A stretch of 33,816 nucleotides of DNA. It comes from a virus (Duplodnaviria; Heunggongvirae; Uroviricota; Caudoviricetes). The stretch is taken from IMG/VR virus record IMGVR_UViG_2850761752_000005; one strand, given 5' to 3'. A program made the position numbers and the translations under genes. The stretch's first letter is position 1. Each line of letters starts with the position of its first letter. Positions 18,376 to 28,969 of this stretch are shown one piece after another. Below the pieces are notes generated by a model. The model worked only from the letters and a program-made list of their open reading frames with translations, had not been told where the DNA came from and did no database searches.

Positions 18376-20142
18376 ATGAACACCACACTGACACCCGCAG
18401 ATCTCGATCCCCGTCGGCAGGCCATGCTGCTGTACTTTCAGGGATACCGCGTAGCCCGCATTGCTGAAATGCTGGGCGAGAAAGTTGCAACCGTTCACAG
18501 CTGGAAAAAACGCGACAAGTGGGGTGACTATGGGCCTCTGGATCAGATGCAGCTCACCACCGCCGCACGCTACTGCCAGCTCATCATGAAGGAGCACAAA
18601 GAAGGGAAAGATTTCAAAGAGATTGACCTGCTGGCGCGCCAGTCTGAGCGCCACGCGCGGATCGGCAAGTTTAACAATGGCGGCAACGAAGCCGACTTAA
18701 ACCCTAACGTCGCCAACCGCAACAAAGGCCCACGCCGTCAGCCTGAAAAGAATGTTTTCACCGATGACCAGATTGAGAAGCTGGAAAAAATTTTCCATTC
18801 CTCCATGTTCAACTACCAGCGCCACTGGTGGGAAGCCGGAAAAACCAACCGCATCCGCAACCTGCTGAAGTCACGCCAGATCGGCGCGACCTTCTATTTT
18901 GCCCGTGAAGCCCTGATTGACGCCCTGCTTACCGGACGTAACCAGATTTTCCTTTCTGCCAGTAAGGCACAGGCCCACGTCTTCAAACAGTACATCATCG
19001 ACTTTGCCAAAGAAGTGGAGGTGGAGCTGAAAGGCGATCCGATGGTGCTTCCCAACGGGGCCACACTGTATTTCCTCGGCACCAATGCCCGCACTGCCCA
19101 GAGTTATCACGGTAACCTGTATCTGGATGAATATTTCTGGATACCGAAATTTCAGGAGCTACGCAAAGTGGCTTCCGGTATGGCTATTCACAAGAAATGG
19201 CGGCAGACCTATTTTTCCACACCATCCAGTCTGACCCACAGTGCTTATCCGTTCTGGTCCGGTGCGCTGTTCAACCGTGGGCGCAACAAAGCTGACAAGG
19301 TGGACATCGACCTGTCCCACAGCAATCTGGCCCCCGGCCGGCTGTGCGCAGACGGGCAATACCGCCAGATAGTCACCGTGGAAGATGCGGTGCGCGGCGC
19401 CTGTAACCTGTTCGACCTTGACCAGTTGCGCATGGAGTACAGCCCTGACGAATACCAGAACCTGCTGATGTGCGAGTTCGTGGACGATCTCGCGTCCGTG
19501 TTCCCGCTCAGCGAATTGCAGGCGTGCATGGTGGACAGCTGGGAAGTCTGGACCGACTTTCATGCACTGGCCCTGCGCCCGTTTGGCTGGCGCGAAGTGT
19601 GGATCGGTTATGACCCGGCAAAAGGTACGCAGAACGGCGACAGCGCCGGATGCGTGGTGGTGGCACCGCCAGCCGTGCCAGGCGGTAAGTTCCGCATTCT
19701 TGAGCGTCACCAGTGGCGCGGAATGGACTTTCGCGCCCAGGCTGACGCCATCAAAAAACTGACTGAACAGTACAACGTGACCTATATCGGCATCGACTCA
19801 ACCGGCGTTGGTCACGGGGTTTACGAGAACGTGAAAGCGTTTTTTCCTGCCGTCCGGGAGTTTGTCTACAACCCCAACGTTAAAAACGCCCTGGTACTCA
19901 AGGCCTACGACATTATCAGCCACCGCCGTCTTGAGTTTGACGCCGGGCACACCGACATTGCGCAGTCATTCATGGCAATCCGTCGCGCCACCACCGCCAG
20001 CGGCAACCGCCCGACCTATGAAGCCAGCCGCAGCGAAGAAGCCAGCCATGCCGATCTGGCCTGGGCAACAATGCACGCACTGTTTAACGAACCGCTGCAG
20101 GGCGAGTCCGCCAATACCAGCAATATTGTGGAGATTTTTTGA
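18376..20142 (+). CDS. P: terminase large (ATPase) subunit gpP-like
   Basis: 588-aa ORF (P2 P is 590 aa); stop overlaps the Q start (ATGA). Confidence 0.9.
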   Translation: MNTTLTPADLDPRRQAMLLYFQGYRVARIAEMLGEKVATVHSWKKRDKWGDYGPLDQMQLTTAARYCQLIMKEHKEGKDFKEIDLLARQSERHARIGKFNNGGNEADLNPNVANRNKGPRRQPEKNVFTDDQIEKLEKIFHSSMFNYQRHWWEAGKTNRIRNLLKSRQIGATFYFAREALIDALLTGRNQIFLSASKAQAHVFKQYIIDFAKEVEVELKGDPMVLPNGATLYFLGTNARTAQSYHGNLYLDEYFWIPKFQELRKVASGMAIHKKWRQTYFSTPSSLTHSAYPFWSGALFNRGRNKADKVDIDLSHSNLAPGRLCADGQYRQIVTVEDAVRGACNLFDLDQLRMEYSPDEYQNLLMCEFVDDLASVFPLSELQACMVDSWEVWTDFHALALRPFGWREVWIGYDPAKGTQNGDSAGCVVVAPPAVPGGKFRILERHQWRGMDFRAQADAIKKLTEQYNVTYIGIDSTGVGHGVYENVKAFFPAVREFVYNPNVKNALVLKAYDIISHRRLEFDAGHTDIAQSFMAIRRATTASGNRPTYEASRSEEASHADLAWATMHALFNEPLQGESANTSNIVEIF

Positions 20143-21171
20143 TGGGAAAGAGTAAGAAGAACCGCGCTGCGGCGACGAAACAGACCCAGCATAAAAACCA
20201 GACTTCAGCCGAAGCATTCAGCTTCGGCGATCCCGTTCCGGTTCTGGACCGCCGTGAACTACTGGACTATGTGGAATGCGTACAGACAGATCGCTGGTAT
20301 GAGCCGCCAGTGAGTTTTGACGGACTGGCGCGCACCTTCCGCGCCGCCGTGCATCACAGTTCACCAATTGCGGTGAAATGCAACATTCTGATCAGTACCT
20401 ACATCCCTCACCCGCTGCTCAGCCAGCAGGCTTTTTCACGTTTTGTGCAGGATTATCTGGTATTTGGTAACGCTTACCTGGAGAAACGCACAAACCGGTT
20501 CGGAGAGGTCATCGCTCTTGAGCCTGCTCTGGCAAAATACACCCGACGCGGATTAGACCTGGATACCTACTGGTTTGTGCAATACGGCATGACCACGCAG
20601 CCGTATCAGTTCACGAAAGGAAGCATCTTTCATCTGATGGAACCGGACATCAACCAAGAGATCTACGGCCTGCCAGGTTACCTTTCTGCCATTCCGTCAG
20701 CCCTGCTCAACGAGTCCGCCACGCTGTTCCGCCGATAGTATTACATTAACGGCAGTCATGCAGGCTTCATCATGTACATGACCGATGCCGCGCAAAACCA
20801 GGAGGATGTGAACAACCTCCGCAATGCGATGAAAAGCGCCAAAGGACCAGGTAACTTCCGCAATCTGTTTATGTACTCGCCTAACGGCAAAAAGGACGGG
20901 CTTCAGATCATCCCGTTGTCAGAAGTCGCGGCGAAGGATGAGTTTCTGAACATCAAGAACGTGAGCCGGGATGACATGATGGCGGCGCATCGTGTGCCAC
21001 CGCAAATGATGGGGATTATGCCTAATAATGTCGGGGGTTTGGGGATGTGGAGAAGGCGAGCCTGGAGTTTGTACGTAACGAGTTAATACCGTTACAAAAA
21101 AGAATGATGGAAATAAATAAATTGGTAAGTGAGAACATTGTTAAATTTGATAGTTATAAACTAGCTACTTA
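20139..21171 (+). pseudogene. Q: portal protein gpQ-like, disrupted by an in-frame amber codon and a frameshift
   Basis: In-frame TAG at 20736..20738 with the same frame continuing to 21086; the final 40 or so codons (...DVEKASLEFVRNELIPLQ...) are in another frame, rejoined by adding one G to the G5 run at 21033..21037. Total span is about 344 codons, as in P2 Q. Confidence 0.75.
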
Positions 21172-21277
21172 ACGTAATCACTAAATGAGGTTCTTTAACA
21201 CAGCTAAAAAATTTATTAATAGCCAGCAGTTTTATGAATTTCTTCAGCGTGCAGATACACGCTGAAGATGCAAAAAA

Positions 21278-22159
21278 TCATATGAGACGACCGTCTGGAC
21301 TTCTGTTACCTAAATGTAATTCACAGAGTATCCACCTAATCACATCAGGTCGAATTAACCCAGCTACAAAAACCGAATTCCAATTATTTTTACCTTTATG
21401 TTTTTCATCCAACAGCAACAACTCGCGAGTCAACAACTCATATACATCGCTATAAGTAGAAAGACTCTTATTCAGTCCTCTAATAACAAGCTCAGGATAT
21501 AAGTAAAACGACTCCCATTGTTCAGACAAATACCCCTTAATATTATTCTTGATAACAACATTATCAAGATGATACTTAACATTGTTATATTCTGGTGACA
21601 TTGGGTCAATTATGATTTTTACATCAATTGTAGGTGTTCGCCCTAATTTAGAAAAATTAGCACATATTAATCTTTGTTTTAATATATTATCAAAATATGG
21701 ATGCAGCATCCGATGGCCTGCAGAATTAGCTATAGTAGTACTTTTGAAAGTATTACATTTGCAAGCAGGAACCAAATTCTTAGTGAATAAAGAAAATTCT
21801 GGATAGTTTTCCTTGGGTAAAACATGATCCAAAGTCCCGCTATGCATTGAACCACACATTGGACATAGAGAGTTAGAATTAGCTGCTCTTATATCATCAA
21901 TTATAGATAAACACTTTGCGGGATTGTTATAATAATATCTCAAAGCTTCAGCAATATTGTTACTCAATACGCCACAAGAATTGACATTAAGATACCCTTT
22001 ATTCTTTATGTACGATCTATATGCATTAAGTATAAATGTATCCTGTCCATTCAGAACAGAATGATGTTTTAATCTCTTATTTGCAGATAGTTTTTTAAAT
22101 GCAGAATAATCTTTAAAAACAGGTCTTTTTAATTTATTCATTTCAATTGCCCATTTCAT
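21278..22159 (-). CDS. HNH endonuclease-domain protein (cargo gene 2)
   Basis: 293-aa ORF in an AT-rich region; motif CPMCG...GTLDHVLP...NLVPACKCN (CxxC, DH, N, CxC); ATG overlaps the ATPase stop by 17 nt. Confidence 0.7.
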   Translation of the reverse strand: MKWAIEMNKLKRPVFKDYSAFKKLSANKRLKHHSVLNGQDTFILNAYRSYIKNKGYLNVNSCGVLSNNIAEALRYYYNNPAKCLSIIDDIRAANSNSLCPMCGSMHSGTLDHVLPKENYPEFSLFTKNLVPACKCNTFKSTTIANSAGHRMLHPYFDNILKQRLICANFSKLGRTPTIDVKIIIDPMSPEYNNVKYHLDNVVIKNNIKGYLSEQWESFYLYPELVIRGLNKSLSTYSDVYELLTRELLLLDEKHKGKNNWNSVFVAGLIRPDVIRWILCELHLGNRSPDGRLI

Positions 22160-23791
22160 TTCTCAACGCAGTTAATACATTAAGTGATAAGTCCTCGCTA
22201 TATTTAGATTCAACATCATCCCAAGACATATTCTTTGCAATTATATTGTTTTTTACTTTATTTAAAATTTGAGTTGGTTCACTCTCACCGAAAACAAAAT
22301 ATGAGATATTTCCTATATTCGCCCCAAAAGTACTCAATCTCGGTTTTTCGCTAACAATTACCCCATCATCTCGTCTTCTGAGTATTGTCACTTGCTCCTT
22401 AAAAACCTCCCGAACAAGATAAACCGAATGCGTTGCTATGATAGCTGAAGAGCCTGTCTTTCTAATAAATTATCAAGCAATGCCATAAATTTATTAATAA
22501 ATGAAGGATGGAGATGTGTTTCTGGCTCATCTATTAATAGAAGAGTCCCATTCTCAATATACAAACAGACTTGTACACAAAACTTAATAAACGATATTTC
22601 CCCACTACTCAAAGGGTAACATTTATTTTCAATAAGCCTCAAAGGCTCGCCAGAGAGAATAATTTCAGAATATAATGATAGTCTAGATTCTTCGCCTCGA
22701 GAATTAAGCTCATTTAATTTAACAAATGGTGAATTTTCACCGCCACATTTGATTACTAAATCGTTGTTACTATTTAGAACACTCAGTGCATCAACAAATA
22801 TATTCCACCTTTGATTATAGCCGATAGCGTCGTTACTCCTCGCTAGTTGCACTATTAAATCATTCAAGTTTAATTTGGATTTTGATTCACGATTTAAAGT
22901 CAATCTTTTGTACCATATCAATGATTTTATTCTTTTATCGGTTGGAAATGAACACTTACTTTCATTTGTTGGAGAAAAAGCAATGAGCCTACTAATTTGA
23001 ATTCGTTCTTCAATGCTCACACCGTTAGAATCAACTACAGCCACCAAATTATCCTTTCCTTTAATCGCAGCCAATGCGATTTCTCTAAGCGTTTGGCTTT
23101 TTCCTACACCATTCTCGCCTATAATTATGGAAATTCTTTTTGGTAAATCATGCTCGTGATCAAAATTAAAAACATAAGATACATCTTCTTCATTAACTTT
23201 ATTCGAATAGCTAATCTTGATGTGCTGTGATAAATTACCCAACTCCTCATATTGAATACCGGAAAGAACTGTTCCTGCATTTTTGAAAGTAAAATACGAC
23301 TCAGACTCTCTAATGAAAGATTTATTAAAGATATCAGAAGAGATTGCTTTTTTCCTCAAATTCTCTGCACTAGCGTCACTTTTCTTAGAAACAACATCAT
23401 TAATGAAATTTAATATATATTTGGATTCATTCACCCCAAAAAATCTTACTAGTCTTCGATAATTATTCATATCCTGAAGCATGACAAAATAATCATTAAA
23501 CCCCTCATCCTTTAAATTAGATTCTTCCTTTTTCTTCACTCGCCTTATCAGTTCTGCTTTTCCATTTCGTTCCTCCTCTGAATTCAAAAAACCAATATAA
23601 CCATTCAGTGAAATTATATCCTTACACTCTTTTTTATTAAAAATAGATATTTCGACTCTACTCAAATATCCAAAATCATTCCAATCGCTTCTTGATGGGA
23701 CTATTTTTATATAATTACCAGAATCAGATATCTGTTGATTATTTGTAATTAAAAAATATAAACTATAATTTTTATTTTTCTTGACTAACAT
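22143..23791 (-). CDS. OLD/ABC-type ATPase with an unrecognised N-terminal domain (cargo gene 1), apparent single-base frameshift
   Basis: Walker A GENGVGKS near residue 225, Walker B LLLIDEPETHLHP and H-loop IIATHS. Read as two ORFs (22436..23791 and 22143..22391); a 1-nt gain within about 22430..22470 gives one protein of about 549 aa. Sample block 22441..22500 has 16 G+C of 60. Confidence 0.7.
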
Positions 23792-24669: not shown

Positions 24670-27084
24670 TTAATACAGGTTCCGCCACTGATCATCTTCC
24701 TGCAAACGCTGGTTCCGATAGAAGATACGCAGGCCTGCTCCTGACGGAATACTGCCTCCGCGAAGGAGTAAATCGACCTCTTTCTCGCTGCCATCAAATC
24801 CTCTGGACTTCAGCTCATACACGAGCTGCAGTCGCTGATGGTCTGTAATTCGCTGTTTGTAGTCTTTACGCCGTTTCGGTTTCACCAGGCGTAACCTTGC
24901 TGCCAGTTCCCGGCGCTCTTTTTTGCTCATACTGTGCAGGTAATCGTGCAACTCCTTGTCATCCATGCTGGTAATGTCCGTTCTGGGGTTCCCATCAGCT
25001 GATTTATCTTTCTCCTGTTGGTTCAAATTTTCAGCAAGGAGACAGTTATTGCCACGAGTCCAAGGGGCGCAAGCGCCCTGGTCGGCTGCCGCCTCCTGAA
25101 CGTCAACGGCTTTACGAACCATTTTCCACTTCACTGCATGAGTGCAGATCTTGCCTTCTGCAATGGGTGACCAGATGCCATAAATACGAATACCGTGATC
25201 GCCATAGGCGGTCGGCTCTTCATTGATTTCATAAGCGGTTCTGATCAAGTGATATTTGCGAGGAACCAGCACGCCGCCCTGCCTCATAATGTAGGTGGCA
25301 AAACAGCCAGCATCAGCAGCAGCCAGGATGGCATCAAGGCGCGGGTTATCCAGTACCGGCGCACCTGCTTTTTTGTCACCCTGCTGCCTTGCCGCCTGAC
25401 CAGCCAACAACCGCAGTTCACGGTAAGCCTGACGCCCTGGAATACCAAAGAAGCGGAATTGCTGAACACGATGCAGAGACGCCCAGGGATTAACGTATTC
25501 AGCGTTATCACGCAGGGATTTACCCGTTTCCTTGCTGATCTCGCCAGCCAGACCACGCCCGTCAATGTTCTTACTGATGTATTTCGCGATGTAGCTTGTC
25601 GGCGTTCCTTTGCGCGGGTTTATCAGCTCAGATTTAAAGCGTGGACCAGTGTTATTACCCAGTTCCTCGCGGTCTTCACGGATGGCAAACTTACGCAACA
25701 ATGCAGTAATGGCGCGGCGGTCTTTTTTGCGCATAAAACACAACAGGTGCCAGTGAACTGTACCGTCATGATGCGGCTCAGCCACCCGCACGCCATACCA
25801 GCGCAACCCGGCTTTGTGCATCGCCTTACGAAATGCAGCAAACATGCCGACCAGATAATCGCTGCTTTGTCTTACCGTCGCATTTGTCCAGGTTGGGTTT
25901 GGTCTGCCGTTATTGAGCGTGGAATGGAAACGTGACGGACAGGTAATGGTGTAGAAAACGGCGCAGTCACCGCGCATTTCCGCGATAAGCTCCAGACCTT
26001 TAACACAGGCCATCATCTCATTGCGGCGGTGCGCCGGGTTGCTGCTGCTGGCGTTTACCACGTCTTCCATATCCAGCGTGTCGCCCTCTTCGTTCACCAG
26101 TTCATGAGAACGGAAAAACTCCAATGACTTGCGGCGCTGCTCACGTTTATGCATCACGGCTTCATAGCTGACATAGGGAGATGCTTTTTTGCTGACCAGG
26201 CAGACAGCACGCAACTGCTCTTCCCGCCATTCGCAACGCATTTTCCATAATTTCCGGTACCACCAGTCGGCGCACAACATACGCGCCAGCGAACCCGGAA
26301 TGAGTTCATAGGGCACGGGTTTACGGCGGTTTCTTTTCCGACGGAGTTGCTCAAACGCAGGCGGGATGACATCCAGACGCAGGGTTTCCGCTGCCACCTT
26401 TTCCCATGTCTTGCGGATTTCTTCTGGCTTAACGTCATCGGTGGCATACAAATCACCACAAGCTGCATCAAGGCACATGCTCATATGCGCAGCGACAAGG
26501 GTAGACAGGCGTTTCACCTGATCCTGACTCATTTCAGGCAGAATCAGCAGGCCGTCCAGCCCTACATGGCTTGCCATAAAACGAAAAGATGCAGATAGCT
26601 GGCTGTCGCGTACATGCTCCAGTCGTTCCAGACATGGCTTAATCGTCTCACGTAAATAGCGGGAATAAGCCTTTGGCCTGCCCAGGCTGCTGAAGTATTC
26701 AATACGTTGCATCAGCGGCTTGCTGATATGGGAAGGCTGGGCGTTGACGTCCGCCAGAATGACCATATCCGGATTAAAACGCTGCTGCTCATGCGCCAGC
26801 TTTGCCCGGCTAATGAGCTTATCCTGCTCCATTTCGTGCTGGACAGGATCACGTGATTCATAAAAAAAATAACGCTCCCAGACCTGATCACTCAGTGCCT
26901 CGCGGCGCAACTGTTCCTGCTCGTTATCGGCAGCGTACAGAGTGATCAGGTTTGAAAGCGCAGAAACCGGCGCAACTTCCGCCGGGTCCAGATAAGGGTT
27001 AATGGCCTTTTTCGGGCTGTTCCATGAGAACGCTGCGGCAGCCTCGTTAAAGCCGCAGCAGTTGTTCATATCGGCATGGCTCAT
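24670..27084 (-). CDS. A: replication initiation protein gpA-like (rolling-circle initiator)
   Basis: 804-aa ORF (P2 A is 761 aa); ATG overlaps the dam' stop. Confidence 0.85.
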
Positions 27085-27720
27085 GCACGTACTCCGTACA
27101 CGGCAGAACTATCCACGCCACGCGAATAATCAAATCCCACCCAGCAGCGCGGCCCGGAAACAGCAATGATTTCTGTTGCTGATTTACCCTCGCCAGCTGC
27201 CACACCGATGCTGCGTTTTACCTTGATATAGTGGTGAGTAAAATTGCGATACAGCGAACGGATCAGGGATGTGTCACTGTTAGAAACAATGACCGGATGT
27301 CCTTCTGATGACCGATGTTCAAGAACGGATGCTAGGTGATACTGGTCATCTTCAGTGAAACCATCAGTGTGATAGCCGGAAAACGTACCGTCATACGGTG
27401 GATCGCAATACACCACATCCCCCGCCTTCAACATCGCCAGCGTTTCATCAAAGCTGGCGCAGATAAACGTTGCTCGCTGGGCTTTTTCTGCAAATGCGCG
27501 AATTTCTTTTTCAGGGAAATACGGATTTTTATAATTGCCGTAGGGAATGTTGAAATGCCCGCTCTTGTTATAGCGACATAAACCACGGTAACCGTGACGA
27601 TTGAGATACAGGAAATATACCGCTTTCATGAAATCAGTAATTTCAGTTGAGTAATTAAACTCCTGCCTTATGTTGTAATAAGCCACCTCCCTGTTTGCGA
27701 TCTCAAATAAAACTCTGGCG
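27081..27720 (-). pseudogene. Dam-like N6-adenine DNA methyltransferase, 5'-truncated by IS911
   Basis: DPPY motif and a strong match to recalled E. coli Dam from about residue 75 onward; frame is open right up to the IS911 end at 27721; the N-terminal AdoMet-binding region is missing. Confidence 0.75.
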
Positions 27721-27728
27721 TGAAGTGG

Positions 27729-28897
<1,169 letters not shown>

Positions 28898-28969
28898 TGG
28901 AGCACCTGTGTTGTTCTGAGGTGAGCATATCACCTCTGTTCAGGTGGCCAAATTCAGTGTGCCACTTCA

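Follow-up and report, generated by a model that had tools for sequence, protein, structure and literature searches.

What is the long region that precedes the ATP-binding site in an ATPase carried by a P2-like prophage? The stretch of DNA analyzed here (the window; 33,816 nucleotides) is a P2-like prophage by its gene layout, with genes for an ATPase and an HNH nuclease lying between gpA and the portal gene (Table 1). The GC content of this cargo is 32 to 34%, compared to 53 to 57% in the flanking DNA. The cos-proximal site between gpA and gpQ is a hotspot for interchangeable anti-phage cargo of P2-like phages (PMC9122126), and the genes studied here share its characteristics, being located between gpA and the portal gene gpQ, beside cos, and being of atypical composition. 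The cargo was present in 3 of 5,426 complete Escherichia coli genomes. Copies of its proteins in databases come mostly from E. coli, Shigella, and Salmonella, under names limited to "AAA family ATPase," "HNH endonuclease," and "hypothetical protein." A first-pass annotation, made from the sequence, had placed the Walker A motif of the ATPase near residue 225 and described the ~215 residues before it as a domain of no recognizable motif. The position of the motif was borne out: GENGVGKS is the only P-loop in the translation.

Table 1. Coordinates of the ATPase-HNH cargo, its domains and motifs, neighboring prophage genes, and two variant architectures (positions are those of the window unless another locus is named)
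Feature	Position	Strand	Detail
Terminase	18376-20142	+	
Portal (gpQ)	20139-~21170	+	
HNH nuclease partner, 287 aa	21278..22141	-	Start 1 nt after ATPase stop
Shifted 3' part of ATPase, residues ~445-549	22143..22458	-	H-loop ATHS (453-456), C-terminal helices, stop 22143-22145
ATPase main ORF, 451 aa	22436-23791	-	Stop 22436-22438
Frameshift site	22459-22461	-	AAA here, AAAA in intact copies; alignment to L001
ABC ATPase head, residues 186-~444	22459..23236	-	Pfam AAA_21, motifs, Foldseek
Walker B LLLIDE, residues 417-422, then PETHLHP	22526-22543	-	
Signature LSSGE, residues 394-398	22598-22612	-	
Walker A GENGVGKS, residues 225-232	23096-23119	-	Sole P-loop in translation
N-module lobe 2, residues 106-185	23237..23476	-	AlphaFold2: helical bundle
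N-module lobe 1, residues 1-105	23477..23791	-	AlphaFold2: five beta-strands, one long helix, sixth strand
Replication endonuclease gpA	24670-27084	-	
IS3-family transposase ORFs	27729-28568 and 28595-28933	-	Within 27081-28933
AbiJ_NTD3 variant, 812 aa	L045 4001-6439		P0181
DUF4062 variant, ~705 aa	L044 4001-6118		P0187

The window carries a broken copy of the ATPase gene. Relative to L001, the E. coli chromosome that we used as the comparison for indels, one A is missing at the frameshift site, and this 1-nt loss breaks the gene in two, leaving the 451-aa ORF and, out of frame with it, the 3' part. In a tblastn search of the window, ATPase residues 1 to 447 were found in frame -3 and residues 442 to 549 in frame -2. 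An 82-aa ORF in the shifted part (22143 to 22391, minus strand) matches the PADLOC profile PDC-M01A. The intact 549-aa protein is encoded in seven other copies of the cargo, on E. coli chromosomes and IMG/VR contigs, and the catalytic motifs of the ABC ATPase are intact in the unbroken copies. An example of an intact pair is WP_112048222.1 with WP_005007304.1, from E. coli UPEC-245U. Other truncated versions occur in Shigella boydii, one of them 243 aa long with a different truncation. Lesions were also detected elsewhere in the prophage. In the portal gene, AAG has become TAG at 20736 to 20738 (K200*), a nonsense substitution, and a C-run near 21037 is shortened by 1 nt, which shifts the frame. 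The Dam methylase ORF is shortened to 201 aa, relative to ~285 codons in L001, and an IS3-family element lies directly upstream, suggesting that the insertion sequence entered the Dam methylase gene. Each of the four indels relative to L001 is the contraction of a homopolymer and could thus be a sequencing error; the substitution that creates TAG in the portal gene points to a prophage in genuine decay. Given the frameshifted ATPase, the pair is probably inactive in the window.

Residues 1 to ~185 of the ATPase are a real, conserved, and confidently folding domain without a match to a known family or solved structure; we refer to it as the N-module. The domain ends near residue 185 (window position ~23237), and residues ~190 to 224 form the beta-strands that lead up to the P-loop in any ABC head (predicted strands 190 to 196, 203 to 209, and 220 to 225, running into the P-loop). 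The domain proposed in the first-pass annotation is therefore real and lacks a known motif, family, or fold, but its boundary lies some way upstream of residue 215, with the rest belonging to the ABC head. AlphaFold2 predicted residues 1 to 188 alone with a pLDDT of 86 and a pTM of 0.84, and the whole ATPase, modeled with 66 homologues, with a pLDDT of 79 and a pTM of 0.73. The predicted strands of lobe 1 span residues 2 to 5, 10 to 13, 27 to 32, 45 to 52, 56 to 68, and 101 to 105, with its helix at 77 to 91. The predicted helices of lobe 2 span residues 108 to 129, 140 to 150, 153 to 159, and 163 to 176.

The two lobes differ in conservation. Across 99 representatives at 50% identity, the mean column identity was 0.25 for lobe 1, 0.46 for lobe 2, and 0.48 for the ABC core. 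By this measure, lobe 1 is the most variable part of the ATPase, and lobe 2 is conserved on par with the ATPase core. The residues that are invariant or nearly so are P32, N38-D39-F40-G41, G67, M104-L105, Y111-R112, D132, F155, S158-F159, R161, N171, G178, and E182. P32 and the W-N-D-F-G stretch at 37 to 41 make up the motif of lobe 1; lobe 2 carries the near-invariant Y111, R112, D132, F155, and R161 and the motif SESYFxFKNA (163 to 172). In distant members of the family, the profile no longer recognizes lobe 1, although it is present, and the lobe 2 motifs persist. Such conservation bears on the most trivial explanation for the region, that it is no domain at all and results from a mis-called start or from AT-rich filler ahead of a normal PtuA-like ATPase. 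The low-complexity-looking composition and the absence of a database motif would fit that explanation. However, the ORF runs unbroken from its ATG, which is preceded by a Shine-Dalgarno-like sequence (GAGAGGG), the region is widely conserved with invariant motifs, and its predicted fold is a confident one. We consider this explanation refuted and give it next to no weight.

Searches of family and structure databases returned little for the N-module itself. Pfam gave no match on residues 1 to 214 of the ATPase and no consistent match on 18 N-modules; NCBIfam gave none on the ATPase N terminus. The best hits of an N-module profile against PDB sequences (E = 0.077) and of a Foldseek search of the N-module against BFVD (E = 0.15) amounted to nothing, and no clear homology to a domain described in Septu or OLD-family ATPases emerged from our searches. 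For both proteins of the pair, the best database matches came from PADLOC. Profile PDC-M01A (PDLC04235) matched ATPase residues 18 to 446 with an E value of 5.1 × 10−33, and PDC-M01B (PDLC04270) matched the HNH partner with an E value of 1.2 × 10−33. PHROG 8066 covers residues 12 to 535 of the ATPase (E = 2 × 10−204) and PHROG 18937 matches the HNH protein (E = 4 × 10−213), both listed as of "unknown function." When the isolated N-module was taken from 18 homologues, up to 16 of them matched PDC-M01A profiles (best E = 1.3 × 10−16), with one marginal match to a PtuA1 profile, and some PDC-M01A and PDC-M01B profiles are shorter, seemingly without the N-module or the N-terminal part of the partner. 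The earlier statement that no motif could be assigned to the region thus holds for Pfam, NCBIfam, and the PDB; however, the N-module is implicit in the PDC-M01A profiles and in PHROG 8066, yet unnamed and uncharacterized there.

These matches identify the pair as a catalogued, unvalidated candidate system, PDC-M01, consisting of a Septu-like ATPase and an HNH nuclease. Calls for PDC-M01 and for Septu overlap in other genomes (PMC11811056), and PDC-M01 itself is unpublished. In the literature, we found no experimental report on the PDC-M01 family, which is absent from the candidates validated in the studies consulted, PMC9122126 included. Another possible assignment came from NCBIfam, where the best match of the ATPase was TIGR04435 ("restriction system-associated AAA ATPase," 568 positions), with similar motif positions. 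We rejected membership in this family because the match scored far below the cutoff and was confined to the region from the signature to the H-loop in all 11 proteins tested. The coordinates of the match are nearly identical in profile and protein (392 to 506 and 396 to 517, respectively), so a long N-terminal region, unrelated in sequence, may be present in TIGR04435 proteins too.

We then asked how far the N-module extends beyond this one protein. A search with the full-length ATPase recovered 724 relatives, of which the best 120 were 540 to 556 aa long and 44 to 82% identical over 95 to 100% of the length, from Enterobacteria, Pseudomonas, xanthomonads, Burkholderiales, and Rhizobiales. Because the full-length relatives keep the N terminus, it is a trait of the family rather than of a single protein. 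The N-terminal region is 31 to 74% identical from Enterobacteria to Alpha- and Betaproteobacteria and a metagenome-assembled genome (MAG) of Geobacteraceae. A word-indexed search with residues 1 to 220 gave just two identical truncated fragments, and we used an exhaustive hidden Markov model (HMM) search instead. The HMM of residues 1 to 188, run against 1.84 billion cluster representatives, gave 268 matches at an E value of ≤1e-3 and 170 at ≤1e-10, nearly all of the 268 being ABC ATPases of 530 to 580 aa with the module at residues ~1 to 190. Matches of ~200 aa were considered as stand-alone domain proteins and rejected, since they begin at residues other than Met or end in mid-protein and are fragments. 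The sole other architectures were ATPases in which an AbiJ_NTD3 or a DUF4062 domain precedes the N-module. The module therefore occurs in this ATPase family alone, and its N terminus is a site of domain addition. The genes found around these loci include type I restriction-modification/Mrr, GmrSD, GIY-YIG, and Eco57I genes, integrases, and a conjugative element (ICE). At L044, the pair sits between two genes for HsdM-like type I methylases, beside a Mrr-type nuclease and a HigB toxin. Such mobile-element and defense-island neighborhoods lend support to a role in defense without proving one.

Relatives were also compared for the nuclease gene. An HNH homologue of ~288 aa, covering residues 1 to 287, lies directly downstream in all 33 testable loci retrieved via the ATPase or the N-module (29 distinct genomic places in Gamma-, Beta-, and Alphaproteobacteria and the Geobacteraceae MAG). 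The two genes overlap by 1 to 8 nt, HNH start over ATPase stop, at most of these loci. When the search was seeded with the HNH protein, distant relatives on viral contigs (27 to 29% identity) were still preceded by module-bearing ATPases of 559 to 576 aa, and both variants with an extra N-terminal domain keep an overlapping, HNH-sized partner. Judging from gene order, the N-module is strictly linked to the HNH partner, which answers in the affirmative the question, raised in the first-pass annotation, of whether homologues with the extension always have the same one. In alignments, the partner (WP_005007304.1, an "HNH endonuclease" in RefSeq) shows a zinc-finger HNH arrangement with C93-x2-C96, D105-H106, N122, C127-x-C129-N130, and H147. 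In addition to its PDC-M01B match, it is recognized by phrog_18937 and HNH PHROGs. Two starts are in circulation for the gene. The ATG at 22159 gives 293 aa and an overlap with the 3' end of the ATPase; the ATG at 22141, used in RefSeq, gives 287 aa, and it is from this start that homologues align. Just past the HNH stop, a perfect 10-bp inverted repeat is located at 21242 to 21267 (CTTCAGCGTG, a 6-nt loop, and CACGCTGAAG). On the strand of the HNH gene, a T-run lies before the repeat and not after it, and the repeat was not called in a terminator scan.

The nearest characterized counterpart is Septu, an anti-phage system with an ATP-controlled nuclease and an assembly of the PtuA6:PtuB2 type. 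Both are two-gene operons in which an OLD-like ABC ATPase is followed by an HNH nuclease, directly downstream in the window. The ATPase is of ABC type (AAA_15/AAA_21, OLD-like), with Walker A, signature, Walker B, and H-loop, and Pfam AAA_21 matches residues 221 to 444 at 45.1 bits (cutoff, 27). In a whole-model Foldseek search of the PDB, PtuA chains from Septu and from retrons Ec83 and Ec78/Eco7 came first (E ~1e-7; TM-scores of 0.26 to 0.34; identity of 10 to 15%); the E. coli structures of Septu PtuA/PtuB are 8EE4, 8EEA, and 8SUX. Septu and retron PtuA are the nearest solved relatives, at the level of the fold only. Two details are common to PtuA and the window ATPase: an Asn in Walker A (N227, corresponding to N95 of Eco7 PtuA) and D-E-x3-H-x-H after Walker B (E422/H426/H428, corresponding to E396/H400/H402). 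In Eco7 PtuA, Glu-x3-His-x-His forms the head-dimer interface (PMC12673091). The C-terminal helical region of the window ATPase also resembles the one by which PtuA binds its nuclease.

However, the ATPase falls outside the PtuA family by sequence, and what similarity there is remains marginal. The NCBIfam PtuA model NF041760, the equivalog for retron Ec78, scored 37.7 bits against a cutoff of 500; PtuA sequences in the PDB matched only the C-terminal part (E = 0.002 to 0.006); and PADLOC PtuA1 ranked well below the PDC-M01A models. The architectures differ as well. PtuA consists of an N-terminal head with a coiled-coil insertion and a C-terminal domain that binds the nuclease, whereas the head of the window ATPase follows a 185-aa module and has no coiled-coil between Walker A and Walker B, the model showing no long helices. 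These two motifs are ~190 residues apart here and ~291 apart in Eco7 PtuA, a difference of ~100. Walker A lies at residues 93 to 100 in Eco7 PtuA, far upstream of its position in the window protein. Stand-alone Septu PtuA is without an N-terminal extension (PMC12819146), and its Walker A should therefore sit nearer still to the N terminus, so the suggestion that the extension sets this ATPase apart from canonical PtuA proved sound. The nucleases differ in a similar manner: Eco7 PtuB has 216 aa with its catalytic His at residue 57, ~70 aa shorter than the window partner, in which the catalytic residue is His106.

A regulatory add-on at the N terminus has a functional precedent in the retrons. 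The N-terminal domain (NTD) of retron Ec78/Eco7 PtuA (residues 1 to 63), absent from stand-alone PtuA, contacts the reverse transcriptase (RT) and the noncoding RNA (ncRNA), and defense is lost upon its deletion (PMC12819146, PMC12673091); we found no evidence of homology between this domain and the window N-module. By this precedent, the N-module might bind nucleic acid, either the ends of phage DNA or RNA, and the basic pI of the window N-module (8.6 to 9.1) would agree with that. However, both lobes are mildly acidic across the 99 representatives (median pI of 5.5 and 5.7; 20 to 24% net positive), it is the ABC core that is basic (pI ~9), and the search found no resemblance to a nucleic-acid-binding fold. 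The Lys/Asn/Ser richness, offered in the first-pass annotation as a feature of the region, is the AT bias of the cargo, as is the basic charge of the window copy, and no functional signature can be taken from the composition; we accordingly rejected DNA or RNA binding as read from Lys richness. Overall, a nucleic-acid-binding role for the N-module seems improbable.

Other defense systems follow the same general plan. In OLD, Gabija (GajA), PARIS (AriAB), and WonAB/PD-T4-4, some of which are carried by prophages, an ABC ATPase likewise regulates a nuclease effector; their nucleases are TOPRIM or PD-(D/E)xK, fused or separate, whereas the partner here is HNH. PADLOC and the PDB gave weak matches to AriA and OLD over the C-terminal half of the ATPase head, and none of the PADLOC profiles for OLD, Gabija, PARIS, and WonAB-type systems reaches upstream of residue ~191. 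We rejected assignment to OLD/GajA (no Pfam Toprim match, a short helical C terminus, and a PADLOC ATPase-Toprim match covering only 206 to 448), to PARIS (an HNH partner rather than DUF4435/TOPRIM, and similarity to AriA at residues 221 to 447 only; E = 1.6 × 10−9), and to WonAB/PD-T4-4 (a PD-(D/E)xK nuclease, and an ATP-site lysine at residue 34, near the N terminus, in WonA [K34A]).

The C terminus of the ATPase is relevant to how the nuclease is held. Residues 481 to 549 are short and helical in the model. Residues 485 to 506 (RLSTFGANIGNISYFVFGESEP; window 22275 to 22340, minus strand) rank with the best-conserved segments in the family, with T488, G490, S497, and F501 invariant; the invariant motif proper, RLSTFGANIGNISYFVFGE, spans 485 to 503. 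Despite this invariance, residues 490 to 503 have a pLDDT of <50, the lowest confidence in the model, as is expected of a segment that becomes ordered on binding. The HNH partner, or another protomer, may bind at residues 485 to 506, a candidate interface. In PtuAB, the nuclease is bound by the C-terminal domain of the ATPase (PMC12673091). These observations weigh against the idea that the N-module is instead the docking platform for HNH, which would hold the nuclease inactive, possibly through the extra ~50 to 85 N-terminal residues of the partner, until release driven by ATP. That idea would account for the joint presence of the N-module and the long HNH protein in every locus examined, the most distant included, and for the extra N-terminal material of both ATPase and HNH relative to PtuAB. 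However, no relative without the N-module was recovered, so that this co-occurrence is without a control group, and the conserved C-terminal region is retained, with an interface-like appearance of its low-confidence motif. We consider docking on the N-module unlikely.

With modest confidence, we favor a reading in which the cargo of the P2 hotspot is a Septu-like ATPase-HNH module, with the N-module as the regulatory or assembly input that controls the HNH nuclease. The ATPase would dimerize head to head like PtuA and hold HNH through its conserved C-terminal region, the motif at 485 to 503 becoming ordered upon binding. Lobe 2, being helical and conserved like the catalytic core, probably packs on the ABC head and is coupled to it. 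Lobe 1, which is beta-rich and evolves fast, would be exposed and is the likely input surface, for recognition of a phage-derived trigger or for higher-order assembly. The coiled-coil that serves PtuA-PtuA contacts is absent here, and we therefore infer that the N-module takes over its regulatory or assembly role and so governs when the ATPase lets go of the HNH nuclease or activates it. All three functional parts of this scheme are inferred: activity against phages, a sensing or assembly role, and coupling to activation of the nuclease. The same applies to the sensor or partner-binding role suggested in the first-pass annotation.

Two features of the conservation pattern could be read against the favored scheme. 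First, the variability of lobe 1 may reflect mere weak constraint. Second, the near-invariant polar residues D39, Y111, R112, D132, R161, and E182 could instead form a ligand-binding or catalytic site. Together with F155, these residues are spread over both lobes in a pattern typical of a pocket, as would be the case if the N-module bound a small molecule or nucleotide, sensing a metabolite or second messenger, or carried out chemistry of its own. However, an interface with the ABC head would explain the same residues equally well, and no enzyme or ligand-binding family or fold was matched in our searches; we think a role of this kind has little likelihood. A more far-reaching version of the favored scheme, in which the N-module is a new fold and the phage-sensing and assembly input of a distinct ATPase-HNH defense family, is possible but rather doubtful. 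In that version, it would replace the coiled-coil and hexamer of Septu and the RT-msDNA control of retrons, with lobe 1 reading a phage protein and lobe 2 relaying the signal to the ABC head.

Septu, retron PtuAB, PARIS, and Gabija exemplify the pairing of an ATPase with a nuclease, one of the major classes of bacterial immune system. PDC-M01 is architecturally distinct from Septu and is not a redundant PADLOC call. For the window, the cargo can be annotated as a catalogued candidate defense pair whose ATPase has been inactivated in a decaying prophage. The N-module may represent a new fold, and the family provides a compact system of just two genes, with an input domain open to deletion, exchange, or mutation at a few invariant residues.
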